A DNA stretch of 63,102 bases, counting the filler, from Collodictyon triciliatum (taxonomy: Eukaryota), in NCBI GenBank assembly GCA_043381765.1. It is 11 parts of 11 records of this genome, joined end to end, with 100 filler letters (N's around TTAATTAATTAA, not from the genome) between each part and the next. Parts side by side here need not be neighbours in the genome. Positions count along the whole stretch, not along the records: positions 46,754 to 52,490 come from JBHJMP010004987.1; 10 more parts are not named here. One strand, given 5' to 3'. The notes beneath the pieces were generated by a model, which did not search any database, had not been told where the DNA came from, and was given only the letters and a program-made list of their open reading frames with translations. Both the position numbers and the translations under genes were made by a program. Shown here in pieces: positions 5,750 to 58,453 of the stretch; within the stretch, counting starts at the first letter, position 1; the number at the start of each line of letters is the position of its first letter.

Positions 5750-5849
5750 NNNNNNNNNNNNNNNNNNNNNNNNNNNNNNNNNNNNNNNNNNNNTTAATTA
5801 ATTAANNNNNNNNNNNNNNNNNNNNNNNNNNNNNNNNNNNNNNNNNNNN
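5750..5849. other. Artificial scaffold linker (44N-TTAATTAATTAA-44N). Identical linkers start at 11600, 17447, 23287, 29129, 34972, 40813, 46654, 52491 and 58351
   Basis: Same 100-nt structure each time, with a 12-mer that gives stops in all six frames. Confidence 0.97.
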
Positions 5850-17446: not shown

Positions 17447-17666
17447 NNNNNNNNNNNNNNNNNNNNNNNNNNNNNNNNNNNNNNNNNNNNTTAATTAATT
17501 AANNNNNNNNNNNNNNNNNNNNNNNNNNNNNNNNNNNNNNNNNNNNTTTGGTTTTTTTTTTTTTGGTTTTTTGGTTTTTTGTTTTAAAGCCTGCCTCTTC
17601 AGCTTGATTTATTAAGACCATCCATCAACGATATTTTTGTAATAAAAAAACTACGATTTTTTGCAG

Positions 17667-23286: not shown

Positions 23287-24753
23287 NNNNNNNNNNNNNN
23301 NNNNNNNNNNNNNNNNNNNNNNNNNNNNNNTTAATTAATTAANNNNNNNNNNNNNNNNNNNNNNNNNNNNNNNNNNNNNNNNNNNNGGTTTTTTTTTTGG
23401 GTTTTTGGGTTTTTAGTTTTTTTGGTTTATTTTGGTTTATTTAGGTTTTTTTTTTTTTGGGTTTTTGGGTTTTTGGGTTTTTTGGGTTTTTTGGGTTTTT
23501 TTTTGGGTTTTTTTGGGTTTTTTTGGGTTTTTTTTTGTGTTTTTTTGGGGTTTTTTGGGTTTTTTTGGGTTTTTTGGTTTTTTTGTTACAGCAGATTCCG
23601 ATCTTGTTTGTTGGTTTGCTTCGAGCGATGATTGGTTGTGTGGTTTATCCCGAAGTCGTATGTCATACTTTCCGATGTGGCTATGTGAATTGCGTTTCGG
23701 AACAATATCTAAAATTGTCCAAAATCAATGTTTATTATATAAAATTTTCCGTTTTTATTTCTGTGGTCTTTATGTGTTATATGTGGAATTTATTAAATCA
23801 TTGTTTTGATAGTCGGTTGCAATCAAGAAGCCCTGATAATTGCAGATAATACCACACAATATACCAATTTTTGTGTTCAGAATGAGAATTACAACGGTAT
23901 CCCCGAACATTGTAGTCATCTTTAAAATTGAAGGCGACTGGCAGAGGTTTGCATTGGGTCGAGGTTGGGTGCTTGTGGCTCGTACTTGCGATGAAATAAG
24001 GTCAAACAGGCTTCATAGATTCATCAGTTTATTTTATACATAACTATTCTTACGATTGTGTAGATGGACACAGGAATATTCAGAGCACACCAACCAACTT
24101 AGCCAGAGTGGGAAAGGCATAGAAGGTGATGGAAAAAAAGAAAGACAGCGCGGTGTATTTGAAGACAAAACTTGAAAATGGCGTGATAGGCGAGCAAATG
24201 TTAATTTTCTTAGGAATCTTTTCGGGAGTGTTCCATAGGTAAATGCACTTGTAATAGCGAGGCTGTCTCATGTGTACTTCTTAGTTCGTGCTTTTCTTCT
24301 ATTTTCACATCCCGGGGATGTCTAAGGGCAAAGGCGAGCGATTCCGCTTTTCGCGCTCTGGCTGGATGATGACCTTCATGACCTTTTTCCAAAAGAAATC
24401 AAAGAAAAAACTTGAATAAAAGAGACGGGGTAAAATAGATGATTGCTAATCAAAATATGCAAAATAAAATAATTCATAACAAATAAAAAAACACAAGATT
24501 TATCTGATTGTATTATTCGCTTATATACTACAGTTGGTCGATAAGTTTAATCTGAATCATAATATCCCAATATAGAATTATATACATAAATTGATTGTAT
24601 ATGTGTTTATATTGTAAAAAAAAAAACCAATTCGATCAGCTGTGTGGCATCATCAAACTTTGTCACGAAGTGAACAACGGTATCTGGGTATTATTGGATA
24701 ATAAAAAAAAAATCGATAGCCAAATATCACTCTATGACTAATTCTAAAGACAA

Positions 24754-29128: not shown

Positions 29129-29940
29129 NNNNNNNNNNNNNNNNNNNNNNNNNNNNNNNNNNNNNNNNNNNNTTAATTAATTAANNNNNNNNNNNNNNNN
29201 NNNNNNNNNNNNNNNNNNNNNNNNNNNNAAAGCCAAAACTCCCGACCTTGGTTGAGAGAGACACCAGGGAGTGGAAGCTTATAGCCATAGGTTTTGCAAG
29301 CAAGAGGGAGAAATCCCTTCGACAACCCCACTGAAAAGACCCTAATACGGTCTGGAAGGAGGTGAGTCAACCATGCAGAGAAGTCCTCTTTGCACTCGAC
29401 CTAGTGCTTATCAAACGAACCTCACTTCTCTTTTCACTATCCCTTTCGACACCTTGCGCCAACAAAGCAGTATTTCCCCCTCCTCCATCCAATCAATATC
29501 ACCCGTCCCTTTTTTTTTCTTTCTCATACTCGCGGGACACTATCACGCGTCCCCAAAAGAAATCCATGCGTCTCTTATCAAGCCTCAAGGACACCTCTTT
29601 TCCCTTTTTTTTCTTTTTTTAATATACCTGATTTTATTTTTCTATCTCTCACACATCCCCACCTACTTTGGAACTACTTGCCTGATGGTTGAATGAAAGA
29701 TTGTTGAGGCGGGCTCAACAGCTAAGATTATTAGAGAATACCCAATACCCAAGAACAAAACAAAATTACCAAAACCGACCAAACGACACGTCAAAAAAAA
29801 AAAACTAAACGGACGGACTCACGAATCGGCGCCATGTTCCCCACGCGTCCGCCCTCTTGTTGGGTTTGGAAGGACGCTGGCTTTCCGCTGAGAAGGTTGG
29901 ATTATGTAGAACCAGGAGTCGTCTTTTATTTCGAAGAGCC

Positions 29941-32790: not shown

Positions 32791-33939
32791 TCCCCCAGCT
32801 TAACACGTGTCCGGGTCGGTTGTTATGGATGGTCAGGAATGGCGGCGCTATAAAGTGGAACAACCGACTTGAATGNNNNNNNNNNNNNNNNNNNNNNNNN
32901 NNNNNNNNNNNNNNNNNNNNNNNNNNNNNNNNNNNNNNNNNNNNNNNNNNNNNNNNNNNNNNNNNNNNNNNNNNNNNNNNNNNNNNNNNNNNNNNNNNNN
33001 NNNNNNNNNNNNNNNNNNNNNNNNNNNNNNNNNNNNNNNNNNNNNNNNNNNNNNNNNNNNNNNNNNNNNNNNNNNNNNNNNNNNNNNNNNNNNNNNNNNN
33101 NNNNNNNNNNNNNNNNNNNNNNNNNNNNNNNNNNNNNNNNNNNNNNNNNNNNNNNNNNNNNNNNNNNNNNNNNNNNNNNNNNNNNNNNNNNNNNNNNNNN
33201 NNNNNNNNNNNNNNNNNNNNNNNNNNNNNNNNNNNNNNNNNNNNNNNNNNNNNNNNNNNNNNNNNNNNNNNNNNNNNNNNNNNNNNNNNNGCGAGGATGT
33301 ATCCACATTGAGCGAACCAACCTTTGAAGAAAAGAATAAAGGGGGAGCATCGACAAGATAATAAAGTCTAGAAACCCAGACCCATTACCCGGTGCAGATA
33401 TTATTGCATATAAGAAAAAGAAAGACTAAAGATTGATGTTTCTTCGACAACGAACCTAGAGAGATGCACGAATAACTGTCGCAAAATTTTGATATATGAC
33501 GCGCAGAGACAATTAGAGAAACAAAATAAAGAAGTGAGGAGAGCCTTAGTCAGTAAATCATGGGATTGGGATATCTCAAGTGAATATGCTAAAGGAATAC
33601 GAAATAAGAGATAATACAAACAACAAATGTACATTATTTTTTCGTTTTATTCAGTTAGTAAAAAAAAAAAGGAATTTCAACAAACAGAAATGTCCAGATA
33701 GCCTTTGAATCCCTAAATCACTGTTGATTGTCTGTATGTTTTCTTCGATTGACAATCACACAATCCATGACAGTCCTCTAGATTTTGCGACTCGATTCCG
33801 AAAACTTGTCCCCGAGCTCGATATCCCTGGAAAGGAGCGTACACGAATGCACATTCAGAATAGAATAAGAAATTACATATACAAACATAGCAAAAAGCGG
33901 AATAATGAATATTTCGATTAGAAAGGCAGAAAAAGAACG

Positions 33940-34808
33940 TCACGTTGAGGAATCGAGTGGCTGATGGAATACCACAGACTTCATGAGAGGGCGGCTGGCG
34001 TCGTCCTCGGGCTGGGTAGACTTTTTGACGGGGGCCTGCTTGGGCTGCGGGCGAGTGGCCCACGAGTACATGCCACCGCCAATGAGGCTGATAATGAGGC
34101 CGACGATGCTGCCAACAGAGAGCTTGTCATTGAAGATGTATGCAGAGAGGACAATGACGGGGATCTTGTTGATGTTGTTGAGGGTGATCCAGGTGGTTGC
34201 AGAGAAGACCGTTTGAGCCCAGAAGCCGGAAGCACTGATTGCAAAGGCCATTCCGCAGCTGAGGACAACCCAGAAGGACTCGGCTTTGAAAAGGCGGCCG
34301 TCATCGTCGACCTTGAAGAGCATGTCTGTAAGGGCCGCCCAGTCTTCGCCGAGATAGAGCGAAACGAGCAGGAAAATCGGGGTGGATGAGACGTTGTTGA
34401 GATAGACCATTTCCATGGACGTGTACTTGATGGCCTCCGTCACCCATTTGACGTAGAGCGAGTATCCGCACATGGCTGCGATGTTGAGGAACGTCCAAAA
34501 GTATCCGACCGGATGGTATTCGATGTCCCAGTTTGCATATGCGAAGGCTCCGATGATAATCACAACCATGGCCCCCCATGTCTCGCGCGTAATCACCTTC
34601 TTGAGAAGCGCAATCTCGCCCAGTGCAACGGCCAGCGAGTTGATGTTGCGGAACACAATCACGGTCGGGATGGACACGTAGTACAGGGAGCGGAGGCTGC
34701 TGAAGAGCATGGTCATAAACAGGACCATGGCGGGAACGAAGGCGGCAAACTTGGCCTTGGTGATGCTGTCTGCTTGCTGAGGTTGGGCAGGGCTCTGGTT
34801 TTGGTTCT
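33940..34808 (-). CDS. Nucleotide-sugar transporter, GDP-mannose transporter (VRG4/GONST/SLC35D)-like, last exon, 5' truncated
   Basis: SLYYVSIPTVIVFRN, GYFW, EMVYLNN and SATTWITLNNINKIP motifs; multiple TM helices; TTCTCTCAG acceptor. Confidence 0.85.
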
Positions 34809-34840
34809 GAGAGAAAATAATACGTTTCAATTTTTAATTT

Positions 34841-34971: not shown

Positions 34972-35548
34972 NNNNNNNNNNNNNNNNNNNNNNNNNNNNN
35001 NNNNNNNNNNNNNNNTTAATTAATTAANNNNNNNNNNNNNNNNNNNNNNNNNNNNNNNNNNNNNNNNNNNNAAAAAAGAAAAGAAAAAAAAGAACAAAGA
35101 AAAGAAAAAGGAAAGAAAAAGGAAAGAAAAAAAGAAAAGAGAAAAAAGAAAAAAAAGAAGAAAAAGAAGAAAAAGAAGAAAAAGAAGAAAAAGAAGAAAA
35201 AGAAAGAAAAGAAAAAAGAAAGAAAAGAAAAAAGAGAAAAAAGAAAAAAGAAAAAAAGAGAAAAGAAAAAGAAAAGAAAAGAAAAAAAGAAAAAAAGAAA
35301 AAAAGAAAAAAAGAAAAAAAGAAAAAAGAAAAAAAAAAGAAAAAGTAAAAAGAAAAAGAAAAAGAAAAAAGGATTCAACAGATCGATCAGCTATGCTTTC
35401 ATTTTTTATGGTTTTATTCTGATTTCATGGAGCGTCCTTGTGGAAAAAAGCGAAGGTCTTCTTGAAAAAACCCCAGAGAATCTTCCATCTAAAATGAATA
35501 TAGTTAACGAACATATATTAACATGCATTTACTATATTACTTACCTTG

Positions 35549-38500
35549 TTAAGCTGTGGCTTTCTGTCTCCACTCAGCAGCTTTCTCGGTGTCCTTCTCA
35601 ACACCCCATCCATTCTCATAGCATTCAGCCATCATTTGAGCCTGGAACTTGGTGAACTTGCCCTGCTCACAATGGGCAGCAAAGTCCGCATCAAAGGAAG
35701 CAGCACCGATAGAAAGTAGGAGGGATTTGTTGAATTGACTCAATCCCGTGACATTTCTGATTTGAATGCTTCCACCTTGCAGCTTTCTTGGGCCGATAAT
35801 CTGGACTGTCTTTGCATCTTGGATTCTATTGGTGTCAATCATGTTCATCGCGTCACTTGTTCTGTTGAATACTGCGAAGACTTCGTCCGGCTTTTCTTTG
35901 TTGACAAGGTATTTTCCTTGGGTGTAAGTCACTTCTGATTTTTGCACACTGTGTGTTTGACTTCCAGTGGCTACATCCCAAATACGTATAGTCTTATCAT
36001 CGCTTCCAGAAGCCAGCCAATTTTCACCATTCGGTCCTTGAATACTGCAAACACTATTGACCCAATTTGTATGTCCACGTAATGTTTTGATTTGGTTTCC
36101 TGTGGTTACATCCCAAATACGTATTGTATTATCATCGCTTCCAGAAGCCAACCACTTTTCACCATTCGGTCCTTGAATACTGCAAACACTTCTGACATAA
36201 TCTGTATGTCCTTCTAATGTTTTGATTTGGTTTCCTGTGGCTATATCCCAAATTCGAATTGTGTTATCACGACTTCCAGATGCCAACCAATTCTCACCAT
36301 TCGGTCCTTGAATACCGCAAACACTCATGACAGGTTTTGTATGACCTTCTAATGTTTTGATTTGGTGTCCTGTCGCTACATCCCAAATACGTATTGTTTT
36401 ATCATGACTTCCAGAAGCCAGCCAATATTCACCATTCGGTCCTTGAATAGTGCAAACACTCCTGACAGGATTTGTATGACCTTTTAGTGTTTTGATTTGG
36501 TTACCTGTGGCTACATCCCAAATAATTATTGTATCATCCCCACTTCCAGAAGCCAACCAATTTTCATCATTCAGTCCTTGAATACTGCAAACACTATTGA
36601 CTGGCTCTCTATGACCTTCTAATGTTTTTATTTGGTTTCCTGTGGCTACATCCCAAATATGTATTGTTTTATCATTACTTCCAGAAGCCAGCCAATTTTC
36701 GCCATTCGGTCCTTGAATACTGCAAACACTAGTGACAGGCCTTGTATGACCTTCTAATGTTTTTATTTGGTTTCCCGTGGCTATATCCCAAACACGTATA
36801 GTTTTATCTTCACCTCCAGAAGCCAACCAATTTTCATCATTCGGTCCTTGAATACTCCAAACACTATTAACACCATTTGTATGACCTTCTAATGTTTTGA
36901 TTTGGTTTCCTGTGGCTACATCCCAAATACGTATTGTTCTATCACCACTTCCAGAAGCCAGCCAATTTTCACCATTCGATCCTTGAATACTGCAAACACT
37001 AAAGACCCAATTTGTATGACCTTCTAATATTTTGATTTGGTTTCCTGTGTCTAAATCCCAAATACGTATTGTTTTATCATCACTTCCAGAAGCCAACCAG
37101 CTTTCACCATTCGGTCCTTGAATACTGCAAACACTATATACAGAACTTGTATGACCTTCTAATGTTTTGATTTGGTTTCCTGTGGCTACATCCCAAACAC
37201 GTATTGTTGCATCATCACCACTTCCAGAAGCCAGCCAATATTCGCCATTCGGTCCTTGAATACTGCAAACACTCCAGATAGGTCCTCTATGGTCTTCCAA
37301 TCTTTTGATATGGTTTCCTGTGGCTACATCCCAAATAAGTATTGTTTCATCACCACCCCCAGAAGCCAACCACTTTTCACCATTCGGTCCTTGAATGCTG
37401 CAAACACTCATGACAGCATTTGCATGACCTTCTAATGTTTTGATTTGGTTTCCCGTGGCTACATCCCAAATACGTATTGTATTATCATGACTTCCAGAAG
37501 CCAGCCAATTTTCACCATTCGGTCCTTGAATACTGCAAACACTATTGACAGAATCTGTATGACCTTCCAATGTTTTGATTTGGTTTCCTGCAACCACATC
37601 CCAAATACGTATTGTGTTATCACTACTTACAATAGAAGCCAGCCACTTTTCACCATTCGGTCCTTGAATGCTGCAAACACTCCTGACAGAACTTGTATGA
37701 CCTTCTAATGTTTTGATTTGGTTTCCTGTGGCTACATCCCAAATACGTATTGTGTTATCACGACTTCCAGAAGCCAACCAATTTTCACCATTTGGTCCTT
37801 GAATAGAGCAAACACTATAGACAGAACTTGTATGTCCTTCTAGTTTATCATGGGGAATTCCGAATTTCACATTATTCATATTCGCATTATCAAAAACACA
37901 ATCACCAAGCATCGAATTCGTGAAATCAACACCATCCAAGTTGGCACCAGTGAGCTTTGCACCATCAAGGATTGAGTTACTGAGATTTGCATGTGGAATA
38001 TTGATGTTTGATAAATCCATTCCACCGAACGAAACATTCATGAAATTCAAAAGTGTGATGGCATTAGATGCAGCCTTTGATTTGCTTTCATCAGTCTTTG
38101 ACATGCAGACAATGCTGAATAATGATACAATAATTTGTTCACGATTCCATTCCTCATCCAGCTTTGCATCATCAAGAGTTTCACAGATGAATTCCTTGAC
38201 TCTTGTAAAATCGACAGGCTCTTTGTTGATTCCGATTTCTTTTGAATGGACGGACAAGTATTCGCACGAGTTTAATGTTCTGGGGTGAATCCATCCGAGT
38301 TTATCAGCAAGTCTGTCTCTCATCTCATCCCAGAATGCCACTGCTTCGTCATGTAGCTTATTCTGTTTGCAGTATTGGTACGCTTTCTCACAAGCCACCC
38401 AGCAGTCCCAATTTTCATAGGATGACTTTTCACCATGTCTAACAGCAGCTGTTTTGTAAAGCTGAATGGCGGCTTCATGCTCTTTCTTGTCTTTCATGAA

Positions 38501-40812
38501 AAGGATAATGTTGTCAATCTGATGGGTGTCTTTCAGTGACATTACAGTGTGTGTCTCCTTTCTGATAGCAGCTGCCTTCTGGAAGTATTCCACGACTTGG
38601 TCCAATCTAAATGAAGGTATATTAGTTATTATTTATTCATATTTTGCAATTGTTAATCAAAATATTCGATTCATATAATAATAGAGAAATTTACCTTTGA
38701 AGCTCAAAGTTTGTTCGGCCAACATATTCCAGAAAGCCAGCATTATCAATATCCGAAACCGTAAATCCTTTCATATCGATGTTGAAATCCTCGACATCTT
38801 TGCTGAAGTCCAACAGGAAAACATTTGCCAGCCTTGTTCTCTCGTGAATCCATCCAAGTTTATCAGCGAATATGTCTCTCATATCAGCCCAAAATTCGAC
38901 GCCACTTTCATGTAGGTTGTTATCCTTGCAGTGTTGGTGTGCAGTCTCACAAGCCACCCAGCAGTCCCAGTTTTCATAGGAGGACTTCTCACCATGTCTG
39001 ACAGCAGCTGTTTTGTAAAGCTGAATGGCGGCTTCATGCTCCTTCTTGTCCTTCATGAGGCGGATAATGTTGTCAATTTGTGAGCCATCTTTCAGTGACA
39101 TGATGGTCTTGGTCTCCTTTCTGAACGCAGCTGCCTTTTGGAAGCAATCAACACATTGAGCAGAACTAGATGTATGTGCATTAGTTAATATTTATTGTTT
39201 TTACTGGTTTTAATAAAATATTTAATTTCTTTTAATATAAAGAGAAAAAAAACCTTTGAAGCTCAAAATTTGTTCGGCCAACATTCTCCAGGGAAGTCGC
39301 ATAATCAGCATGTTTTTCGCCCAGTGTTCTCACGCGAATATCCAGCGTCTTCGTATAGGCCTCCAAAGCACCCTTAAAGCTAGGATAATGTGAGTAAATA
39401 CATTATAGTTGCTTCAATTAAAAATATAAATAATTTATAGAAAGAGATACTCTTTCAAATCATAGCTGATGTCTCCAATCATTTCATAGCAGGCCACGAC
39501 ATTTGAATGATTTTCACCCAGGGCAAACATGAAAATATCCAGCGATTGCTTTAATGAGGATAAGGCCTCAGTTTTCCTATATAAGGTAAAAGTAATTGAT
39601 ATTTATATAATTAATTAGAATTATATGATGCATAATTTTAACCCCAAATAGAGTCCATACAATGAAACATATGAAGCCAAATATATTTTGCAAAAATTGA
39701 ATGAAAATTATTATTGTTTTATGAAAATATCTGTAATTTAGAAATTCAAACTTTCCACTGGCAAGATGAACGTTTGCAATGAACTGGATTGTCGAGGCAA
39801 CAGATGCATGCTTAGCTCCCAGCGATTTTTCAAGGATTGATTTTGCCTTTTCGTAGTTTTCAATAGACTCTTCATACCTTGGTGATTCAATCATATTAAT
39901 ATTTCTCATATTATAATCATATATAAAACCGCCATTAATGGATATATGTGCTACTTTTTCCCAGCCAGGGAGACATGGCCATAGTTCTGGTACGATGTTG
40001 CGACAAGAGGATGCTCGTTTCCAACTTTCTTTTGGCGGATTTCCATGGCCTTTGTGTATTCAACCAGAGCTTGCTCATTCCTATCATAAAAAATTGATCA
40101 GCATGCACATATTTACAAAAATAAAAAGCGGAATATTAACGTATATAGATGAATCAATTATTACTTTGACTGCTTCACATAGATGTCTCCAAAGCGGTCA
40201 TGTGATTGGGCCACTTGCAAGTCGTTCTCGCCCAGTTGTTTGATTCTCAATTCCAGTGATTTCTTGTATTCATCAAGAGCTTCATCAATCCTATTTCATG
40301 ATAAGCAAATCATAATAATTCCTTTTTGAAACATTATTCATAATTTATTTAACGATGGAAGAGAGCCTTACTTATCCTGTTGCTGGTAGATGATTCCCAT
40401 CTCTTCATGAATGGTAGCGATACGCAGGGAATCATCTGCATTTTTCTCAAGGGCATCGAGACATTTCTTGTAGTAGACCATGGACTCAGCCCAGCTGTTT
40501 TATTTTTATTTTATTTTAGAAAAGTTAGCATTATAAACATCATTTCATGTATTACTTTTAATCATTATTTTATTTTTATTTTTTTACTTTTGGAGGTTCT
40601 TGTAGACACGACCAAGATTCAGGTAATCAGCAGCCTTTGCATCTGTAATTTGATAAATTATTGAACGTATCCATATATAACTCATATTCATGACATAAAT
40701 TCTTCAAAAATACAATAAATTGCATACCTTCTGTCTGATGCTTTCCAAGACGCACATTCAGAACAGACAACAAGAACGAATTCTCAAAAGACTCCAAGAA
40801 AAATCCAACCAG
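35549..40812 (-). CDS. TPR array, duplicated helical module, pentapeptide repeats, 14 WD40 repeats and a SEL1-like tail; 5' truncated
   Basis: Six phase-2 TPR exons (39254-40494) splice in frame to exon 38695-39166 and then to the 1018-aa terminal exon: AASNAITLL...MDLSNINIPHANLS, WD40 x14, MAECYENGWGVEKDTEKAAEW. Confidence 0.88.
35960..37845 (-). repeat. 14 near-identical 135-138 bp WD40 coding repeats
   Basis: 45-aa unit GHTxxVxSVCSIQGPNGENWLASGSxDxTIRIWDVATGNQIKTLE. Confidence 0.95.
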
Positions 40813-40912
40813 NNNNNNNNNNNNNNNNNNNNNNNNNNNNNNNNNNNNNNNNNNNNTTAATTAATTAANNNNNNNNNNNNNNNNNNNNNNNNNNNNNNNN
40901 NNNNNNNNNNNN

Positions 40913-43123: not shown

Positions 43124-45795
43124 TCAACGCACACTCTCCAGAGTCCTATCCGGGAAGGCCATCACAACCACCGAGATGTTATCAGTGGAGCCGTTTGCAT
43201 AGGCGGCATTCCTGAAGCGCCGCGCAAGCACACGCGGGTTGAAGTCTGGAGTCTGTGGGAGCGACGAGGGAGTCTGCCTAGATGAGCGACGGGACGATTT
43301 GCGGGACGGAGCCGGATGAAATGCCGGCCAGACCGAAGGCAGATGGGCGGGTTCGTAGGCATCCCAAAGCCCATCACAGGCCAACACAAGGACGCAGACA
43401 GAGCCAGGCGCACGAGCCAGCCGAATCGAGTCTGATTCCATCCGTGGCTGCACAGCTGGGCGCAGAATATGGTTTCCAAAGGCACGAGAGACAGCAAGAA
43501 TCCCATTCACACGGCCGTCACCAGACACAAACGCCCCGCCAGCCTCCACACGAGCCCGTTCTGCGGGGTCGCTCGGGCGCACACAGCGTGTCTCGTAGGC
43601 CAGCCGAATGTCGGATGCGAAGCCGTGCATCGGCGACGAGACAAAGCCAGAATCTTCCAGCGCCAGAGTCGGCTCGGAGAGCAGAGGCCCGCTTGGGGGC
43701 GAGTAGACATAAAGGGCTGCGCGGCAATCGCCAATCGCCCCCACGGCAATCTGGTGGATGTCTGGTCGCGGCTGCACATAAGCAAAGACGGCACAGGCGC
43801 CTCCAGGAACACGGGCATCGCGCATGGAGTCATCCACTTGGTCCACAGCGTCGTGCAAGGCTCGGCGCGGCTCGGCGCCAAAGCGGATTGCATCGCGGAT
43901 GGCAGATCCGATTCGCATGCTGACTATCTTGCTGCATGCACCGCCACCGCCATGGCCGTCAACAACGCCGACAAGGACGGTGGATTCCACGTGAGTTCCC
44001 TGCCGGATTTTTAGCGATGGGATGGGCGGGTTGGCAGGGTCTGGGATGCGTGTGAGGACAACGTGGTTCTCCATTTCCTTCCGCTTGCCTTGCATCTCGG
44101 CCACGCCCACGGAGATGTGCCATTCGTGTAGCTTTGCAGGGACAGCCGCCTCCGTCTCCTTTCGAGGCGGAAGGAGGGGCTCAGAGCTTCGCCGGATTTG
44201 CAGGAGGCGGTAGGCTACGATTGTGTCCCACTTCATGACTTGGCCGATGATGTCGTCCCACAGAATGGACGCGACAATGCGGTTGCGATCGAGTCGCGCC
44301 TGCCAATCGCCGCTGAGCAACTCAGATTGGTCAATCCTCTCATCTTCTGCTGTTCTACTGAAAGGCACGGCCGCTTGTTGGTCGGGTATTGTGGGTGGAA
44401 GAAGGGCTGGATGTAGGATAGAGAGAGGGATGTTGAGGCGATGCCCATCAGCGCGAAGAAGCACGTATTGGATGCTTGGTCGAGTGTCGAGAAGTGCAGC
44501 CACTGGCGAGTGGATGGACGGCACGATGGATTGTGGGATGCCTCGTAGGTCCAAGACCACCAGCCCGCTTCCAGATTGCGAGTGCAGTGATGAAAGCATC
44601 TGGACAATACCAGTGGTTGTTGCATCGGGCCCCACACAGCCGAGCCATCTAATCAGTGTGCGTGGTTTGGACTCGTCATGCTCTGAAATGACCTCGTCGG
44701 CCTCGCCAAGAAGCTTCCACAGTTCCGTTTTGGCTCGGCGAGCTTCCTCCGAATCCCCCGCGTCATGGCAGAAGCCTATACCGCCATGGACTCCCACACC
44801 CCACATTTTGCGCTTGTGAGCTGCTTCCATCACCCCAGCATAGCCCGTGGCGTCTAAGTTACACCCGCCCACAAAGATTGCCCCAATGGCCCCGACCTCT
44901 TCCAGCGCCTTCCAGATGATTGCTTTGCCATCTGATCCCAGTGGAATCCCGCTTTCATGGAGTTGCACATTGTGGTTTAATGTACCGCGATGGGAGAGTG
45001 TGATATGAAATGAAATCAGATAAAATGAAAGAAGAGTATTATTAAGAAGAATGAAATAAATGGATAACGAAGTCGATAGCATATTAGACATCAACAAAAA
45101 AAATTAAATAAAATATAGAAACCATAAAAAAGATAATAGATAAACAGATAAAAGATGAGATAAGAAGAGATAAGAAGAGATAAGAAGAGATAAGAAGAGA
45201 AAAAGAAGAGAAAAAGAAGAGAAAAAGAAGAGAAAAAGAAGAGAAAAAGAAGAGAAAAAGAAGAGAAAAAGAAGAGAAAAAGAAGAGAAAAAGAAGAGAA
45301 AAAGAAGAATAAAAAGATAGCAAAAGGTAGCAAAAGTAAAAGAGTAAAAAAAAATTGAAAATAACTTAATAGCAGTTCGACATAATGCATACACATACAC
45401 ATAAAAAAAAAAACATACGAGAGGTCCAACGAAAGGGTTTTCTGCTCCGGTGGAATTGATGAAAGCGTTTCTTGCAACCGACTCAGGATAGCATTCACGG
45501 TCACCGCTGCGTTCCCACCGCTCTGCGAGTAAACACGCTTCGACTCCTCCGCAACAACGGTGTAAAGATACTCAGCCACTGCCGTTTATCAAAACTTTTT
45601 TTGAGTTGACAGGCGGCAAAATAACATTGAAATGAGAAGAAGAAGAAAAAAAAAGACATGCGTTGGAAATCTGCTGGCGTGGGTAGGGCGCTGAAGTAAC
45701 AAAATATAAAAGTATAACTCATATACACAAAACACTGAACCAAAACCTGGGTTGGGGAACGGCGTGCGGTAAAAATACGAATATACTCCGCCCAT
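43124..45795 (-). CDS. PP2C (PPM) phosphatase with degenerate N-terminal LRR-like region and possible N-myristoylation; 4 exons
   Basis: MGGVYS start and three frame-preserving introns. GKRKEMEN, GVVDGHGG, IGDCRA, RVNGILAVSRAFG, LACDGLWD and GSTDNISVVV motifs; LSLDLSGIPLG and LVVLDLRG LRR-like segments. Confidence 0.85.
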
Positions 45796-46605: not shown

Positions 46606-48067
46606 TCTGTGTCGTGATTACTTTCGTCCGAGTCGCTGCTAAGATCCACACACNNNNNNNNNNNNNNNNNNNNNNNNNNNNNNNNNNNNNNNNNNNNTTA
46701 ATTAATTAANNNNNNNNNNNNNNNNNNNNNNNNNNNNNNNNNNNNNNNNNNNNCCGAACTCATGAAAACCTCTAAATGTTAATCATGACATCCAAGTAAT
46801 GCAGAAGCGTCCGAAAATCGATTTGTATTAACAGAATTCGTAGCATTTAAGTCAACTTAAAGAAAGTACATTATATTCCGGATTTGTGGTATAATTTGTG
46901 GAATTTACATGTTAATAGTAGTATTTTCATAATAATCAATCATCATGATATTATGTATATAATTTTCATTTACATATATAGCAAATATAACATTTGGTTT
47001 TGCCAATTAGTTTCCTTCCGTGATTTTGTCTCAATTTTGAAATAATAATATCTGTGGTGCTCTGTGCCTTTCAGCCGAACCCATCATGTTCCTTTGTTTG
47101 TTTGTTGCCTTCTTCGATCACAGCTGCGACAGACGGTGCCTCCTGTTGGCCTCGAACTTTTTTCTATGTTTCTTTTTCTTTTCCTTTTTCTTTTCTTTTC
47201 TTTTTCTTTTCTTTTTCTTTTCTTTTTCTTTTTCTTTTTCTTTTTCTTTCTTTTCTTTTCATATTGAAACGATTTTGCTTCAGTCTCGAGCTGATCTTTT
47301 TTTTTTATTGCACCTATGGAATGAAATTGGGTATTGATTATGATTTCATCCTTATCACTATTGTTTTGCGAGAGTCCACTTGATTTATTAGTATTTGTCA
47401 TCTCAACATCCGAAATGATATTATTCTTATTCAGAAATGGGACTATAAGCGATATATTTTTAACCAAATCGAACACAAAAATTGAATAAATGAATCAAAT
47501 ATGAAGAAATCGCACACCCAAGAAAAGACAATCTTTGTGCTACGATAAAAAGAGAGCGTGTAGGTTCGATCAAGAGCAAAGAATAAAAGCTTTGGTTTTT
47601 ATATCCAAAAGTGTAAGTCTGATAACCTGGCATAGTTGAATGGCTTAAATACCAATGAATTAAAAACTACTGAAAAGTATATCAAGACTCAGAAAAGAAG
47701 CATTTCACTAATGAAGGCATTATTAGTTGTGTCAAGAACGGGACGTAGTTGCAAGATGGTTTGTGCACTAACCTTAATGATTCAAACACATACAGCATTG
47801 CACACTATTCATTATGTGGATAATGCAAGTTTTTTTTTTTATATCTTTGATTTCTTTTTGCTTCCGAAGGTAAATGCTTGCATCAACTTGGTAGTGAAGA
47901 GGAGGACGAGCCATACTGCACAGCTCAGGTTACAACCAACTTTTGCTTTTTTTTATTTATCGTAACTTAAAAATAGCCATCACGCCTTCTCACGTCACCT
48001 AATGTAAAGAAAGACCGGCACCTTGAATAAGCTGAATAATCCTCAGTTTGGTGGAAGACATCCATTC

Positions 48068-51000
48068 ATGAGAACAGCACCACTCATGATGTTCCTGTTG
48101 GTGTTGTGCTCCCTTTTTGACTATTCCTTTGCGGGGTGAGCGCTATCTTTTTTAAAAAATACATCGCTTTCTTATGTCTTATTTTGTTCCTAAAATTTTA
48201 GAGCAAAGTGCTCATTTACAAGAGAGGAACTCTTATCCATGCATGTTGAAGACGCTTTCTGGATTCTGTTGGATTATTATGACCAAGAATGTAAAATCAA
48301 TACGAATGGCTCAGGTGGACCTCATCCACCACTCGGAATTACCTTACCTTGTTCGATTGACTACCCAAGAAAGCAAATGGGCTCCGATGAGAGATATGAG
48401 AATATCAATTACTCTACAGAATATACAAGTCTTTTCAAACGAAAAGATAACCCAATATTGAAAGGACTTGTGACTCGACAAAATACTCCAGACTATAAAG
48501 ACATTTCCATGAATGGCACATACAAAGAAAGTCAATATACTCTTTTAGTCCAGTTTTACAATTTGCTTGACGGAGACAACTGGTTGGAAAATAATGGTTG
48601 GAAAAATGAGGATATTCCAATTTGTGAGTGGTTTGGAGTGGGGTGTCTCGACACTTGTTCTGATGAGGAATACCGGGTAGGTCTCCATAATAATAGATTT
48701 GATATAATATGATTTTAAACTGATGGATAATTGCAGGATGACACTTGCCCAATAATTGAACTTTCCCTGCCAAAGAACAATCTTTACGGTGATATCGGGC
48801 GCTCTTCATACATCATGGAACAATTACCGTCTCTAAGAAACATTGATTTGAGCTCCAACTTGATTCATGGAGTCTTACCAGATTTCAATCTACCAAATTT
48901 ATTATCGTTGCAGCTATCTTTGAACCGAATAATAGGAACAATGCCTAATTTTCAAGAAATGCCAAAGATTGAGTATCTAGATATTGAAGGAAATATGCTG
49001 GAAGGTTCAATACCAGACTTCTTAGGAATGCCACTCCTTAATTATTTTTATGTTGGGGTCAGCAAGAAGTTGGCAGGTACAACCACCGTATTATAATGAA
49101 ATTGTCAGAAAATGAATGGTACCAAAAAAAATTGCGCATTAGGAATCTTGCCAGATTTCACAGGATTGCCTTCTTTGCAATTACTCTACATTTACGAAAC
49201 TAGTATATTTGGTAGAAATCCATTATAATTATGTGTATATATATGTGCCTAATTGTCACGCATACCAACTAGATAAGTATGTTAGAATATATAAGCTGCG
49301 CGAAACGAAAGGAGATTTTAATTTTGTGAAAATTCTGAGCCACTTTTTTTTTAAAAAAAAAAATAAAAAAAAATAAACCGGGTGCAATAGGAACTGTTCC
49401 AGATTTCAGCAACCTTCCGAGTATAATGGAATTTTACTTTTTCAACAACCAATTCACAGGTATTGATACGCACTTTTTTTCCTTTATCCGATTCAAAATT
49501 TTGATACACTTTTAATACTCTATTGTCTATATTTCCATTTCAAATTCAAATCAAACGTATCTGTCAATATAATTGATATATGTGTGGAAATAATTGATGC
49601 TATTTTATCATTCCAATTAATATTATAGGCACAGTCCCAAACTTTAGTAGAATACCTTTTGTGAAAAGAATTTATCTCTTCAGCAATCAACTAAGCGGTA
49701 ATTTGTTTGTTTGCTTGTTTGTTTGTTTGTTTGTTTGCTTGTTTGTTTGTTTGTTTGTTTGCTTGTTTGTTTGTTTGTTTGTTTGCTTGCTTGTTTGTTT
49801 GTTTTGATTCACATGCTCACATGATGTATTTTGTGTTTATTTTTCAAACCTTACTTAATTTTTCTTTTTTAGGAACGATTCCTGACTTTGATGGTATTCC
49901 ACTTGTCACTGATATCATTATCTCAAGCAATCAATTAATAGGTAAATTTGCATATATGACCAACTTTATAATATTTAGAGATATAATATAGTTTTCTTTA
50001 CTCAGGGACGATACCCGACTTTAAGAGTATTCCATACATCAGTCTATTATTTTCTAATAGCAATCAAATTAATGGTAAAACATTATGATTAAATTGCTTG
50101 TTTTGTAAGGAAATAGAATAAAATACGATAGGTATATTTTGTCTAAATTTAATTGTCTTCTTACAGGAACGATTCCAGACTTTAGAAGCATTCCTAATGT
50201 TTACATGTTTGGTTTTTCTAACAACCAACTGAGTGGTAATTGATTGTTGCTTGTGTTTTTGTTTATTCCAACTAATGGTGACTATATCTATGAAGGATTT
50301 ATGATATAGGCACTTAAACTATTTACTACAGGGACTATTCCAGAATTTAGTGGTACAAACACTGTGGATTATATCGATATTTCAAACAATAATATTTCAG
50401 GTCGATATAGAGCCATGCTATAATTTATATCATTGTTACAATATAGTACTGTTCAAACAATTATGTGGTAGAGTATTGATTCAACTAAAAATATAGGAAG
50501 TATACCTAACTTTAAGGGGTTTTCTAGAATAAGAGCGCTGGATCTCTCTAGGAACAATTTAACTGGTATTTTGGGTACATCTTTTGAATTCTATATGTCT
50601 AATTCTGACTGTAGGTATGCTAGGTACTATTCCAAATTTTTCAAGTCTTGCAACAATCGAATATCTGTCAGTTTACAACAACCAGCTCGAAGGAAGAATC
50701 CCGAACTTTGAAAATTGTCCAAAATTAAATGAAACTGTTCTATTTAGAAACAATCTAAGTGGTTATTTGCCTTCATTCAAACTGCCTTATCTAATTAATA
50801 TGGATGTTAGCGAAAATCTAATTATTGGCTCTATTCCAAATAACTGGGAAATTCCGTCAATACAGAGCATCGATTTATCAAGAAATAGGATGAGTGGCAC
50901 CGTTCCAGCTTATATCGAGGAGTTTTTGCAGCTGAACTCACTTACATTATCCCACAATCAATTCACTGGAAGTATGCCAGACTACTTCTGGAATCTGCCA

Positions 51001-52226
51001 AATCTTGTATCAATAGACTTAAGAAGCAATTCATTTTCTGGTGATGTGGGTATTTTTATTTCCCCAACTGACCCAGTTACAGAGAGGTATGTTTTCTTTT
51101 ACAAATTCCTCAACCTCGACGACAATGAACTTTCTGGAGAACTTAATTGGAGGATTTTTGGTTATGTACAAAATGTGAAAACAATCAGCCTAAGGAATAA
51201 TAAAATAACTAACCTTGGTGAGTTAATTAGTTTGGTTACATGGACCTATCTTGACCTTTCTGGTAATCCTATTGTTGGGAATATCCCTGATTCATACAAC
51301 CGATTTACCAAACTTGAATACCTGGGATTGAAAAATACATCCATGAGCCATGGAAAGACCAACTATCTGCCCCATTTTATGAATTACACAGACCCGTTCA
51401 ATCTAGAAGACGAATCAAAACGTTATCTTTGTCCATCAATCATATCCAATTCAAGTCTTGTTAAAGCAGATGTAGATTTGAGCCCGAGTTACTATGGCTA
51501 CCAATTTTGCAAATGCTTGCCTGGTTACTTTGGCTTTGGTAACAACTGCATCCAATGCCCCAGGGAGTGTGAATGCATAGACGGAATTACCTTGAACTAT
51601 TGTCACGCCTCACCAAACGTGATTCAAGTTCAACAAATTCTTCTATGTCCACGCCCAGATTCATGCAAAACATTTATTCCTTACAAATCAACCCAAAGAA
51701 ATACAACAGCCAAAGTCACAACTGTCTGCCAACCCGGATATGAAGGACATGCATGCTCAAAGTGTCAAGAAGGATATGGCATGCAAGGGAGAATCTGCGT
51801 GAAATGCAAAGATGAAACAATCTACTCGACAGTGTTTTTTGGCACCATGGGTTTCTGCTTGTTTTTGTCTCATCTTTACAACTCTGAAACATCGAAAACC
51901 GGTAATTCAAAAGTCATGTATCACTAAAATTAAATAAATTAAAATGAAATACTAATTATGGATAAAACGTAGCGGATATTCGAATCATTATGCTCCACAT
52001 GCAAACCCTATCCATTATTTCTGCCGGGCTTGTACAATCAGACGACACAAACAAGTTTCTTGGAGCTTCCTCTTCCATCGGTTCTATACAACTTCCAAAT
52101 CTTTCATGCACTTTTGGCCTAGACAATATGTTCGATTCTCTTTTGCTCAGTTTTGCCAGAATTCCCATTTTCATCGGTTTTGGCTGTGGTTTCTACTACT
52201 TTGGAGATAGGCATATCCAGAATAAG
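48068..52226 (+). CDS. LRR receptor-like protein: signal peptide, LRRNT cap, plant-type LRRs, Cys-rich/EGF-like region, multi-TM C-terminus; 3' truncated
   Basis: MRTAPLMMFLLVLCSLFDYSFAG, then W...CEWFGVGC cap and LxxLxLxxNxLxGxIP repeats, CKCLPGYFG and CQPGYEGHACSKC, then hydrophobic helices including IIMLHMQTL. Confidence 0.88.
49463..49513 (-). mobile_element. About 23-bp LINE 3'-end micro-insertion with imperfect TSD, in an LRR-gene intron
   Basis: TTGATACGCACTTTT (49463-49477) and TTGATACACTTTT (49501-49513) flank TTTCCTTTATCCGATTCAAAATT. Confidence 0.65.
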
Positions 52227-52590
52227 GTATTACATACGTTCATATGCGCTTTATCTAATATGATTCCGTTTCTTCCTTTTTTTTCTTTTTCTTTTCTTTT
52301 TTCTTTTCTTTTTTCTTTTCTTTTTTCTTTTCTTTTTTCTTTTCTTTTTTCTTTTCTTTTTTCTTTTTTCTTTTTTCTTTTTTATTTTTTATTTTTTCTT
52401 TTTTATTTTTTCTTTTCCTTTTTTTCTTTTTTTCTTTTTTTTCTTTTTTTCTTTTTTTTCTTTTTTTTTCTTTTTTTTCTTTTTTTTCTTNNNNNNNNNN
52501 NNNNNNNNNNNNNNNNNNNNNNNNNNNNNNNNNNTTAATTAATTAANNNNNNNNNNNNNNNNNNNNNNNNNNNNNNNNNNNNNNNNNNNN

Positions 52591-55172: not shown

Positions 55173-56319
55173 TTAGACTTTGCATTGTTGGTCTAGACAT
55201 GTCAAAGTGATATCATAGAGTATAATTTTTCTCACAGCATTGACGCTCATTTCTTTTCCTGGGTGATGGGCGTTTTCTTTTCTTTTCTTTCTAAAATAAA
55301 AAAAAATAACTGGTAAGGAGGAAGACGAAAAACAAAACAAAAGAAAAAGTATGAGAAAGGCAACAAGATATCCAGCTGCAGATCGCATCCCAAAATCCGA
55401 GGATGTGTCCTTCTTTTCCTCCTGTCTCTCACTAAATCTTTTCTTGCCGCACTTGTGCCTATTTGATTTCTAACTTGCACAATAGGCTAGAGAAGGTTGC
55501 GAAACTGGGGCGCCGAATGATTTTTTTTTTCTATGCATCATGGTGCTGGACTAACCATTTGCACGGAATATATGTGTTTTAAAGAGTTAAAAAAAATAAT
55601 TGTATTTTGCAGTATATTTGTACTGCTTCAGCAGGCGCTGTTGGGTAAATGAATCCTCGGCCGAGGGTTGAGCTCGCCTGGATGGGGAAGGGCGCCACCG
55701 ATTCTCATGTCGCGTTGATTCATCTGCTGGCGCGGGCGGTTGTTCTTTCCAGCGAATTAGATTACAGTTTATTTACTTGTGGAAATTAATTACAAATCGA
55801 TTATTTTTCAAGTAACTATCTCTTAAATCGATACAACCAGGATGGAAAGCCTTGTGCAATATAGCTTCCTGAACAGCTTGCTGAAATACATCCACATTCT
55901 TTGTTATCGCTACCGCAAGCAAATAGAGATGTGGGAATGATTTGTGCATGTATTTGTATTGTTATCATTCTCCCAGAAGCCACTCTGCCATCTAGTGACT
56001 TTTTTTTTCATCGCCAGGAATAGAAGTCATTGCCCTTACTTTTGCGATGAATGACTGATTGAACCTTCCAGATACTTGGAGTTTGTTTATGGGGCCAAGG
56101 AGGGTTTTCTAAAAATTAAAAAAAAATAACAATAATTATGAGATGAGAACCTGCAAACCACTGCAACGCTCCAGGATGGATATGAGGCGGGGAAAAGAGT
56201 TTTGGCAATGCTCTGTGCCTCTTTTTGAAGGGAAAACGAGCACAATACACCCCACTAACAACCCAACCGGGTGCGGCTGGAGAAATGTGACTTGTCTTCC
56301 ACCAAAATATAATCTGAAT

Positions 56320-56391
56320 TGCCACCAGCGTGAATCGAACACGCGATCCTCTGCTTACGAGGCAGATGCCTTGCCACTGGGCCATGGCGGC
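56320..56391 (-). tRNA. tRNA-Thr (anticodon CGT), intronless
   Basis: Folds as acceptor GCCGCCA/TGGTGGC, D arm GCCC-AGTGGCA-AGGC, anticodon arm TCTGC-CTCGTAA-GCAGA and T arm GCGTG-TTCGATT-CACGC; discriminator A; a T4 run lies shortly downstream. Confidence 0.92.
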
Positions 56392-56909
56392 CTTCCGTAC
56401 TTCCGTATGAGAGTCTATAATATATTATGTGATAAATCCTTGTCGGTTGTGTGATACATCATGAAGTAAAAATTCCTAGACTCTGTGTTATTCTGATGAC
56501 TTGTAATTCTTTGCCAGTATAATGATTTTACTGCGAGAGCAGCACCGCTGTTAAAGAACTGATAACAAATTTACAGCTCAAACACAGAGAAAAGATAAGA
56601 AAAGGTTCTTCTGAAGTATTTTATTGTGCCTTGCCCAATCAAGCGCGGAGCCGATTAAAGCACAAGCCTTTCCGCGACAGCCAACATCAGCCGGGAGTCA
56701 TCATCAAGACGGCAGAGTATAGCTGCAGAGCAACTGGGTTGCGAGGACTCCACTTTTCGTCTTCATCTTCATCTCCTTTGCCTTCTATTTCAGTTTGGTG
56801 GGCGACAGGCTGGCAAGAGAGTGGGATGGACGTCTTGGATGAAGAGACAAAGAAGCTGAAGAAAAAGAGAAGGGAAAAGAGACCTTCGCCAAATTGGCCG
56901 AGAAAATCC

Positions 56910-58076
56910 TTACTGCGGCTGGGGCTGCTGAGGCGGGTATGCGCACACATATTCCTGTGGCTGATAAGGCTGGGGCGGATGAGGCTGAGACGGATAAGGC
57001 TGAGGCGGATAAGGCTGAGACGGATAAGGCTGAGACGGATATTCCTGAGGCGGATAAGGCTGAGACGGATATTCCTGAGGCGGATAAGGCTGAGACGGAT
57101 ATTCCTGAGGCGGATAAGGCTGAGGCAGCTGAGCGGGGTGGGCGTAGGGATACTCGTGGGGCGGGGTGTGAAGCAGGCGGGTGTTTCCGACAAAGATGGG
57201 GAGGGCGACGTTGAGGTTGAGGACGAAGGAGGGCATGACGAGGACGGCGACGAGGGCGTAGGAGATGGTGAGGATTTTGGAGGCGAAGGAGGGGGTGAGC
57301 AGGGCGGGGAGGCGGGCGTCGCCGGCGAGGACGAGGGCGAGGGTGCCGGGGGCGACGGGGTCGGGGAAGTCGAGGAGGGCGTGGTCGGTGGTGGAGGCCT
57401 CGTGGGCGCCCTGTGCGCGGTAGTCGACCGTCTGGCGCAGCAGCACGCGGACGGCGGCGACGGGGCGGTCGGTGGGGTTGCTGACCGTGACGGTGGGGCG
57501 CACGACGTCGCCGGGGACGGCCCCCGTGGCAGGCAGGTGCAGGCGCGCCGCGATGGGCGGGGACGCGCAGCACAGGCAGCAGATGGTCTTTGTGTCGTGC
57601 GCCTCGGCCGGCATCAGCAGCCGTGCAGCCGCCGCGTCATAGACGCCCGCCACGCTGGGCCGCAGCTGCGCGGTGGGGTCCACCTGCCACGCCAGGTCGA
57701 TGTTGGCCTCCAGCCCGTAGCGGATGTACCCGTGCGCCCCTGCAAAGGCCGGCGGGTACTCGCGCCCGGCCTCCAGGCGGATGCAGAACGGGAACCGGTA
57801 CTCCCCCGGCGCAAGCGAGTCCCCCGCCCCCTGCGCGTGCGCCTCCCACACGTGGAACTTCTCCTCCAGGAACGTGCTTGTGGCCGAGTAGTGTCGCCGG
57901 CTGTCGCCGCTGCCCTTGGAGAAGCTTGCGTGCACCTTGCCCGTCAGCTCCACCTTGATCTTGCGCGGCTTGATGGTCTTGTGCACGACCACGTGCACGC
58001 TCCCCCGCATCTCCTGCCCCGCCGCATACTCCAGCTTCTCCCCCTCCATCTCGAACCGGATGTCGGCGTCCTTCAT
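56910..58076 (-). CDS. Alpha-arrestin (arrestin N and C domains) with Pro/Gln/Tyr repeat tail; intronless, very GC-rich
   Basis: YAAGQEMRGSV, LAPGEYRFPFCIRL, PPAFAGAHGYIRY, KTICCLCCASPPI, LLTPSF...ISYAL and LPIFVG; tail of (PPQEYPSQPY)n. Confidence 0.92.
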   Translation of the reverse strand: MKDADIRFEMEGEKLEYAAGQEMRGSVHVVVHKTIKPRKIKVELTGKVHASFSKGSGDSRRHYSATSTFLEEKFHVWEAHAQGAGDSLAPGEYRFPFCIRLEAGREYPPAFAGAHGYIRYGLEANIDLAWQVDPTAQLRPSVAGVYDAAAARLLMPAEAHDTKTICCLCCASPPIAARLHLPATGAVPGDVVRPTVTVSNPTDRPVAAVRVLLRQTVDYRAQGAHEASTTDHALLDFPDPVAPGTLALVLAGDARLPALLTPSFASKILTISYALVAVLVMPSFVLNLNVALPIFVGNTRLLHTPPHEYPYAHPAQLPQPYPPQEYPSQPYPPQEYPSQPYPPQEYPSQPYPSQPYPPQPYPSQPHPPQPYQPQEYVCAYPPQQPQPQ

Positions 58077-58233
58077 TCCTGCGGCCTGCGGTCCGTCGGT
58101 TGCTGTGCGTCTGCTGCGCGGGTTGTCAGGGTTGTGCTGAGAGTGCTGGGCGTGCGAAAGAAAAAGAAGAAGAAAAAAAAAGGAAAGAAGGAGAGGAGGA
58201 AAGGAGGAGGAAGGAGGTTGCTTGTGGCAAAGG

Positions 58234-58297
58234 GTGTGTGTCTTTGTGTGTGTCTTTGTGTGTGTGTGTGTGTTTGTGTGTGTGTGTTGTGTGTGTC

Positions 58298-58350
<53 letters not shown>
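58234..58350. repeat. (GT)n microsatellite at the scaffold edge
   Basis: Read directly. Confidence 0.95.
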
Positions 58351-58453
58351 NNNNNNNNNNNNNNNNNNNNNNNNNNNNNNNNNNNNNNNNNNNNTTAATT
58401 AATTAANNNNNNNNNNNNNNNNNNNNNNNNNNNNNNNNNNNNNNNNNNNNAAA

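Follow-up and report, generated by a model that had tools for sequence, protein, structure and literature searches.

Plants, brown algae, and animals are all known to have tandem arrays of exons that each encode a single leucine-rich repeat (LRR). Such one-repeat-per-exon arrays are textbook evidence of domain growth by exon duplication, and they are also the substrate of the immune repertoires that have been proposed to arise by exon shuffling in brown algae. ERECTA has LRR exons of 72 nucleotides (nt), the repeats of the plant-specific (PS) LRR class have a period of 24 residues, and the vertebrate glycoprotein-hormone receptors (LGRs) carry a part with seven transmembrane (TM) helices (7TM). 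Here we analyse an array of this kind in a stretch of 63,102 bases from Collodictyon triciliatum (the window), in which a gene for a putative LRR receptor contains eight consecutive exons of 69 nt with one LRR each. Judged by their sequences these exons are old, and we consider it probable (roughly 0.6) that they are the constitutively spliced relic of a tandem exon duplication and not an active generator of diversity.

In Ectocarpus, the type I LRR exon starts at the Gly of a G-x-x-P motif and encodes one LRR, and the hallmarks of shuffling are LRR exons in introns or in antisense orientation, near-identical copies, and recombination, as far as the available part of the report describes them (PMC3341825). 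The LRR exons of the brown-algal ROCO genes comprise 72 bp in phase 2, and several splice variants have been reported for these one-LRR-per-exon genes; the same source, of which a part was available, cites the LRR exons of the vertebrate glycoprotein-hormone (gonadotropin) receptors as being all in phase 2 (PMC11378527). The SERK genes have a tendency to one domain per exon, and for Medicago SERK3 putative splice variants that do not contain exon 3 were inferred from polymerase chain reaction products (PMC3061892, in its accessible sections).

The window consists of about 11 contigs of about 5.7 kb each, and pieces that are neighbours in it are not neighbours in the genome. One of these contigs carries the LRR gene, whose model (48068-52226, plus strand) comprises 13 exons with 2967 nt, or 989 codons, and is free of stops when spliced. 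The following features were assigned, in part by comparison with transcript-derived homologues of Diphylleia rotans (for example P0305):

46754-52490, no strand: contig carrying the LRR gene, bounded by the linkers 46654-46753 and 52491-52590
48068-48135, plus strand: exon 1, start codon ATG followed by a hydrophobic N-terminus resembling a signal peptide; phase 2 at its GT donor
48202-48676, plus strand: exon 2, with the N-terminal domain and an LRRNT-like cap (C-x-W-x-G-V-x-C); aligns to Diphylleia homologues
48737-49076, plus strand: exon 3, 340 nt, about five LRRs, ends in phase 1; Pfam matches LRR_8, LRR_4, and LRR_1
49143-49211, plus strand: exon 4, 69 nt, phase 1-1, one atypical LRR (…YIYETSIF); 29.3 bits with a unit hidden Markov model (HMM) that was built from these units
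49391-49459, plus strand: exon 5, 69 nt, phase 1-1, one LRR by borders and unit HMM
49629-49697, plus strand: exon 6, 69 nt, phase 1-1, one LRR by borders and unit HMM
49702-49804, no strand: (TTTG)n microsatellite in intron 6 (TRF period 4, 25.8 copies)
49873-49941, plus strand: exon 7, 69 nt, phase 1-1, one LRR by borders and unit HMM
50006-50074, plus strand: exon 8, 69 nt, phase 1-1, one LRR by borders and unit HMM
50167-50235, plus strand: exon 9, 69 nt, phase 1-1, one LRR by borders and unit HMM
50332-50400, plus strand: exon 10, 69 nt, phase 1-1, one LRR by borders and unit HMM
50497-50565, plus strand: exon 11, 69 nt, phase 1-1, one LRR by borders and unit HMM
50624-51901, plus strand: exon 12, 1278 nt, two in-register 23-residue LRRs followed by irregular LRRs, the 12-Cys module, and TM helix 1
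51973-52226, plus strand: exon 13, 254 nt, start of a multi-pass membrane domain; alignable with P0305 as far as its residue 994 (of 1270)

A first-pass annotation of this DNA had described eight consecutive 69-nt exons with one LRR each between 49143 and 50565, all in phase 1-1 with a split Gly codon and flanked by LRRs in long exons, and this description is correct. All eight exons have the same length and lie between an AG and a GT; each ends in G and starts with G plus any base, which splits a Gly codon behind its first base. The flanking LRRs reside in exon 3 (48737-49076, 340 nt) and exon 12 (50624-51901, 1278 nt). Each of the short exons translates into one unit of 23 residues with the pattern G-[TS]-[IV]-P-[DNE]-F ... 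N-Q/N-L/I-x, and the atypical unit of exon 4 has 11 of its 23 residues in common with the matching unit of P0305. If any one of the eight exons, or all of them, are removed computationally, the frame stays open with 0 stops.

All 12 introns of the model are GT-AG introns, and they have a G+C content of 0.20-0.33 compared to 0.38 in the exons. An unspliced read-through of the gene would be unworkable: it would meet an in-frame stop in 11 of the 12 introns, and a shift of the frame in the remaining one, the 58-nt intron 11. At the start of exon 12 two in-frame acceptors stand in tandem only 9 nt apart (50606-50626; …tag|gtatgctag|gt…). The second possible acceptor, upstream at 50615, would if used add three residues (G-M-L) between two LRRs; the alignments with homologues fit the acceptor at 50624. 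The 3' end of the gene is missing as the contig end truncates the open model, and beyond 52226 T-rich sequence of low complexity (52277-52490) reaches up to the contig end.

The likeness to the LRR exons of Ectocarpus that had been pointed out before is found at the borders of all eight exons. In both cases, one-LRR exons are arranged in tandem, start at the Gly of G-x-x-P, end after L-x-x-L-x-L-x-x-N-x-L-x, share a single phase, and are frame-neutral, according to the available part of the Ectocarpus report (PMC3341825). However, the Collodictyon exons have 69 nt, 23 residues, and phase 1, whereas 72 nt and phase 2 are given for the brown-algal exons in the accessible part of PMC11378527. Unlike the brown-algal ROCO loci, the Collodictyon contig contains no pseudo-exons, no near-identical copies, and no traces of recombination. 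The products differ as well, the brown-algal ROCO protein being a cytosolic LRR-ROC-COR GTPase while the Collodictyon protein is predicted to combine an extracellular LRR domain with multiple TM helices.

The predicted protein has, from its N-terminus onwards, a signal peptide and an LRRNT-like cap, then about 21 LRRs, a module with 12 Cys residues, and TM helices. About five of the LRRs are encoded by exon 3, eight by the single-LRR exons, and two 23-residue LRRs together with the irregular LRRs by exon 12. Pfam profiles match exon 12 (LRR_4, E = 1.3e-15; LRR_8, E = 6.8e-15; LRR_1, E = 1.5e-14) and exon 3 (LRR_8, E = 1.3e-09), and with the TM helices that follow the 12-Cys module they bear out the earlier reading as an LRR/multi-TM receptor-like gene. 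The LRRNT_2 profile (PF08263) reaches E = 0.0022 and 18.7 bits in exon 2, which is below the curated cut-off of 20.7, and the Diphylleia homologue P0014 scores 29.3 bits. All 12 Cys of the Cys-rich module in exon 12 are invariant in our alignment of this region (A1). The model has 21 regular unit starts with 23 residues as the commonest spacing (11 of 20), and 23 is also the commonest LRR spacing in 10 of 11 Diphylleia homologues. Across the 11 Diphylleia proteins counted, the number of regular unit starts per protein ranges from 16 to 32.

With plant LRR receptor kinases the protein shares the predicted signal peptide, a candidate LRRNT-type cap, the plant-like and presumably extracellular LRRs with their G-x-I-P motif, and the single-LRR exons, as far as the accessible parts of the plant sources go. 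It differs from them in the repeat period, which is 23 and not 24 residues, and in the number of TM helices, which is about nine and not one. In addition, neither a kinase nor a ROC-COR domain is present in the full-length homologues that were scanned, and in eight Diphylleia homologues, in whole or C-terminal form, Pfam gives no Pkinase match; the C-terminus of the window protein itself is missing. The LGRs are similar in combining in-phase single-repeat exons, a Cys-rich hinge, and a multi-pass membrane domain, again on the basis of a source available in part, but the exons described here are in phase 1, the Diphylleia homologues scanned have no match to the Pfam 7tm profiles, and no sequence relation was seen.

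The gene belongs to a family. A search among longer proteins returned three full-coverage matches with 38-42% identity, and an exhaustive HMMER search with a 425-residue query from exon 12 found 17 representatives with a matched stretch of at least 380 residues, plus shorter fragments. Of the 24 clusters examined, 21 are Diphylleia rotans transcripts from EukProt (EP00002) belonging to 21 different Trinity genes, and the other three are the metagenome fragments P0139 and P0147 and one generic LRR protein. The 21 Trinity genes are to be read as a lower bound for the number of family genes in D. rotans, and with the 16-32 unit starts per protein they substantiate, at least for this species, the multi-copy family with varying LRR number. 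The nearest relatives of the window protein are the short metagenome fragments, of which P0139 is 50% and P0147 56-57% identical, and DNA contigs with 90-100% identity to the gene were found in freshwater metagenomes. In the window itself, all 21 high-scoring segment pairs of a tblastn search with the model are on the plus strand inside the gene, and there is no paralogue on the other contigs. A metagenome scan with alignment A1 yielded 80 loci that match the generic LRR part, with 23-38% identity, and these were set aside; the one reaching furthest, L064, stops at query residue 309, and the remainder of the Cys-rich module is left uncovered by all of them.

The homologues are colinear with the model. 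Using blastp, 16 of 16 family proteins were matched, all of them in colinear order (e.g. P0305 at 151-994 and P0292 at 30-996), and 14 full-length homologues of the family, which includes P0305, P0132, and P0001, have 30-40% identity over 777-986 aligned residues. The colinear match spans the N-terminal domain, the cap, the LRRs, the 12-Cys module, the first TM helix, and the initial part of the membrane domain. The full-length homologues have a signal peptide and a conserved motif near the N-terminus; the cap and the 23-residue LRRs follow, then the Cys module, and then about nine hydrophobic helices. The alignment of the spliced model with P0305, which among the full-length homologues is the closest, covers 848 residues (40.2% identical) and has 4 gap positions. 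This alignment is ungapped across all eight junctions and matches the units one to one; model and P0305 therefore have the same number of units. The D. rotans proteins thus show the same architecture from the N-terminal motif to the membrane domain, but they are known from the transcripts of another organism, and some paralogues have extra N-terminal domains. Such additional modules in front of the LRRs are found in P0003, which has a NIDO domain (E = 1.4e-32), and in P0132. By visual reading, P0300 and P0317 contain stretches that look NIDO-like, repeated in P0317, and P0298, P0300, and P0303 have several LRRNT-like caps per protein. Among the papers listed by the literature searches, none describes LRR receptors of Collodictyon or D. 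rotans, judged by title and abstract. Taken together, the data point to a large, strongly expanded, and uncharacterised family of LRR/Cys-rich/multi-TM proteins in a poorly studied supergroup.

Comparisons of the membrane domain of this family with solved folds gave no significant match. AlphaFold2 was run on P0289, a C-terminal fragment of 320 residues, with an alignment of 13 rows, and gave a model that contains one small hairpin besides about eight long helices (predicted local distance difference test score, pLDDT, 77.5; predicted template modelling score, pTM, 0.72). Foldseek found no match of this model in the PDB at E <= 0.001, the best being at E = 0.42, and no significant match to a solved G protein-coupled receptor. 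In VIA-align the best hits (Z of 8.6, root-mean-square deviation of 3.1-3.2 over 87-103 residues) were designed or unrelated helical proteins, which is in the noise range of helical bundles. The Pfam profile of fungal-type TRP (PF06011) appears at E = 0.11 in one of four proteins and DUF7630 below its cut-off in two of four. Atlas feature matches were to uncharacterised eukaryotic clusters, in some of which TRP (12%) or Ephrin_rec_like (48-78%) is carried by a share of the members, and these are leads only. A word-based search with residues 1025-1360 of P0001 returned only four proteins, all of them EukProt Trinity transcripts and the query included.

The exon plan is a trait of the family, because the breakpoints of Diphylleia isoforms and of P0139 coincide with intron positions of the window gene. 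Five Diphylleia isoforms have tails in the LRR domain that resemble retained introns, a status that is derived from protein sequence only, and four of these tails start or end at a unit Gly (P0128, P0129, P0293, and P0318), whereas that of P0299 lies 8 residues into a unit. Tails exactly at a unit Gly are what a phase-1 intron in a Gly codon would produce, since both the exonic G followed by GT and the G of AG followed by GN still read as Gly. P0287 diverges from P0138 at the position of intron 2, the 3' border of exon 2, which is consistent with a retained intron, and P0128 and P0308 diverge where the window gene has intron 12. P0139 resembles the model from the acceptor of exon 12 to its donor, and P0147 likewise gains or loses similarity at the borders of this exon.

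The copies have diverged far from each other. Among the eight 69-nt exons, nucleotide identities range from 41 to 62% (mean 52%; adjacent pairs 55%), and as the identities to the two intron-less units downstream are in the same range (42-62%), the eight are no closer to each other than to these. With a maximum of 62%, there are no near-identical exon copies at the locus. The introns do not show any meaningful similarity to one another, the best local score being 34 in low-complexity sequence. A six-frame scan of the contig with the unit HMM gave 23 rows, of which 10 are full-length (29-38 bits) and correspond to the eight exons and the two downstream units; their scores are circular as the HMM was built from the same ten units. 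The scan found no LRR pseudo-exons above 0 bits in introns or antisense, all four minus-strand rows being below 0. The eight-exon stretch has 71 of 184 residues identical to P0305 (38.6% compared to 40.2% overall) and is not more diverged than the rest of the protein, which does not support the diversification that had been supposed for it. The per-unit best-hit signal is saturated; for units 7 and 8, the distance of the best hits from the Cys module equals that in P0288 and P0137, a hint only.

Related strains retain the local exon order. Three strain contigs from two freshwater metagenomes, with about 93-96% identity, keep exon 3-intron 3-exon 4, exon 6-intron 6-exon 7, and intron 9-exon 10-intron 10, respectively. 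In the contig across exons 3 and 4 there are 17 differences, and they are concentrated in intron 3, which has 10 of them in its 66 nt, whereas the 148 exon bases have 7. A related strain has a shorter (TTTG)n run in intron 6, with 20 letters in a DNA contig of run X1 compared to 116 in the window.

Our preferred reading is that in an ancestor of this collodictyonid-type receptor family a primordial one-LRR exon of 69 nt in phase 1-1 would have been duplicated in tandem together with its intron, and that the copies would then have diverged almost to saturation. Today, all eight exons would be spliced in and give rise to a fixed solenoid of about 21 LRRs at the cell surface, which would be joined via the Cys-rich stalk to the multi-pass membrane domain and might serve in sensing. 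Frame neutrality would then be a by-product, although over evolutionary time it would allow units to be gained, lost, or replaced, as is seen between paralogues.

Several observations weigh against the duplication relic. There is no RNA read or contig over any junction of the gene, so that constitutive splicing would be a conclusion from the homologues only. RNA-library contigs are present, two each in runs X12 and X13, but as all of them are inside exon 12 (51033-51326 and 51529-51841) and contain no joints they neither bear on splicing nor prove transcription; the sequencing runs account for only a low share of the sampled words (0.13 at most), and stretches that no contig covers carry no evidential weight. 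Of the 75 isoform pairs compared in 19 Diphylleia genes, not one shows a difference of 23 residues or a multiple thereof, and the variants are mostly retained-intron-like tails, but Trinity isoforms from short reads within clusters of 90% identity are a poor detector of repeat-exon skipping. P0121 is without 12 residues starting from a unit Gly, a loss to be expected from an alternative acceptor, and in the DN3242 transcripts (P0171, P0303, and P0304) one whole LRR unit at residues 707-729 is replaced exactly between two unit Gly. The replaced unit is unrelated to its counterpart, while P0171 and P0304 are identical in 706 of 706 upstream residues and differ in only two of 1025 downstream residues, both two units further on. 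P0171 and P0303 have two other local clusters of differences, as in alleles or recent copies that were co-assembled, and because of these clusters we read DN3242 as a probable exon-sized replacement between two near-identical copies, with mutually exclusive splicing as a live alternative. The register test against P0305 gave identity at 25 of 112 variable positions in register and at 11-23 of 112 when shifted; these counts do not establish unit-by-unit orthology with P0305. Introns unrelated to each other would also fit a later gain of introns.

If the splicing of the gene were regulated, with some of the symmetric exons being skipped or mutually exclusive, ectodomains of differing length and surface would result. 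It is general knowledge that the LRR solenoid fold tolerates the loss of a unit, and in this gene each single skip and the skip of all eight exons keep the frame open. Splice variants have been reported for the brown-algal ROCO genes (PMC11378527) and, as putative forms without exon 3, for Medicago SERK3 (PMC3061892), both sources being available in part, and the replacement in DN3242 and the deletion in P0121 indicate that splicing or exon choice at unit borders can vary. Yet such regulation is unlikely here, given the isoform pairs without a single 23-residue difference, the further differences between the DN3242 transcripts, the retention of all eight units in P0305, and the junctions of this gene, over which there is no RNA. 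Ongoing shuffling or conversion of exons at the DNA level, which in the style of the Ectocarpus ROCO genes would diversify ligand binding, is improbable too. The exon border is that of the Ectocarpus type I LRR exon (PMC3341825, as far as available), the family is large with LRR counts that vary from 16-32 starts in 11 Diphylleia proteins to 21 in the model, and DN3242 has its one exon-sized replacement. Against this, LRR exons in introns or antisense are missing, exon identity does not exceed 62%, the introns are unrelated, the unit number equals that of P0305, and the three strain contigs preserve the exon order; the scope of these statements is one contig of 5.7 kb, and the other contigs of the window hold no paralogue. 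Of the cassette region that the first-pass annotation had envisaged as being skipped or shuffled in frame, the possibility of in-frame skipping and the Ectocarpus-like border thus stand, but old exons with unrelated introns, no pseudo-exons, and the same unit number as in P0305 speak against its being shuffled.

It is also conceivable that an intron-less array came first and that several of its units later acquired introns in parallel, each at the identical G|G site. This would explain why the introns, with 58-179 nt, are mutually unrelated and why neighbouring units in the same register are intron-less, but old introns lose their similarity anyway. Eight independent insertions at an identical codon position would be unparsimonious, a clear MAG|R proto-splice site is not present with only three of the eight exons ending in AG, and the retained-intron-like tails place the same position in four other Diphylleia genes, which means that the position is old. 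We regard parallel intron gain as very improbable.

The other contigs of the window contain genes of different types. At 1755-5749 (plus strand) there is an uninterrupted open reading frame (ORF) of more than 1,330 codons, which is intron-free over 4 kb and cut by the contig end, and which encodes a further giant repeat protein of this assembly, with a WD40 propeller followed by 26 Cys-rich Ephrin_rec_like repeats (PF07699, E = 8.9e-152). An ORF of 1027 codons at 35549-38632 (minus strand) contains 14 WD40 repeats with nearly identical units (…IQGPNGE-WLASGS-D-TIRIWDVATGNQIKTLEGHT…), and the similarity of the units suggests that these repeats have been homogenised recently, unlike the old LRR exons. 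Further long intron-free ORFs encode a PP2C phosphatase at 43124-45103 (minus strand; E = 1.7e-23) and a nucleotide-sugar transporter of the UAA/TPT type at 33940-34833 (minus strand; E = 1.2e-08). The region 56000-58350 has 57% G+C compared to 22-48% elsewhere, with long overlapping ORFs on both strands, and the organism or compartment of origin may differ between its contig and that of the LRR gene. The contigs are joined by ten artificial linkers (44 N, TTAATTAATTAA, 44 N) at 5750-5849, 11600-11699, 17447-17546, 23287-23386, 29129-29228, 34972-35071, 40813-40912, 46654-46753, 52491-52590, and 58351-58450, and three longer runs of N (15859-16377, 18816-19656, and 32876-33290) are ordinary gaps.

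The recurrence of one-LRR exons with the same border but another phase and length suggests that this architecture either arises repeatedly or is very old across eukaryotes. The finding will be important only if the use or the exchange of cassettes is demonstrated. Single-cell genomes of D. rotans and Collodictyon triciliatum, together with RNA-seq data of D. rotans, make the question of the cassettes testable, according to the available part of the report (bioRxiv 10.64898/2026.06.11.730069). It is a doubtful idea that the collodictyonids (CRuMs), which branch deeply among the eukaryotes, possess a large undescribed family of surface receptors with LRRs, a Cys-rich module, and about nine TM helices, expressed from at least 21 genes in D. 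rotans, in which the replacement or choice of frame-neutral exons would diversify the recognition of prey or microbes. If this were true, these organisms would have an independent exon-cassette recognition repertoire, parallel to that of the brown-algal ROCOs and coupled to a membrane domain of unsolved fold.

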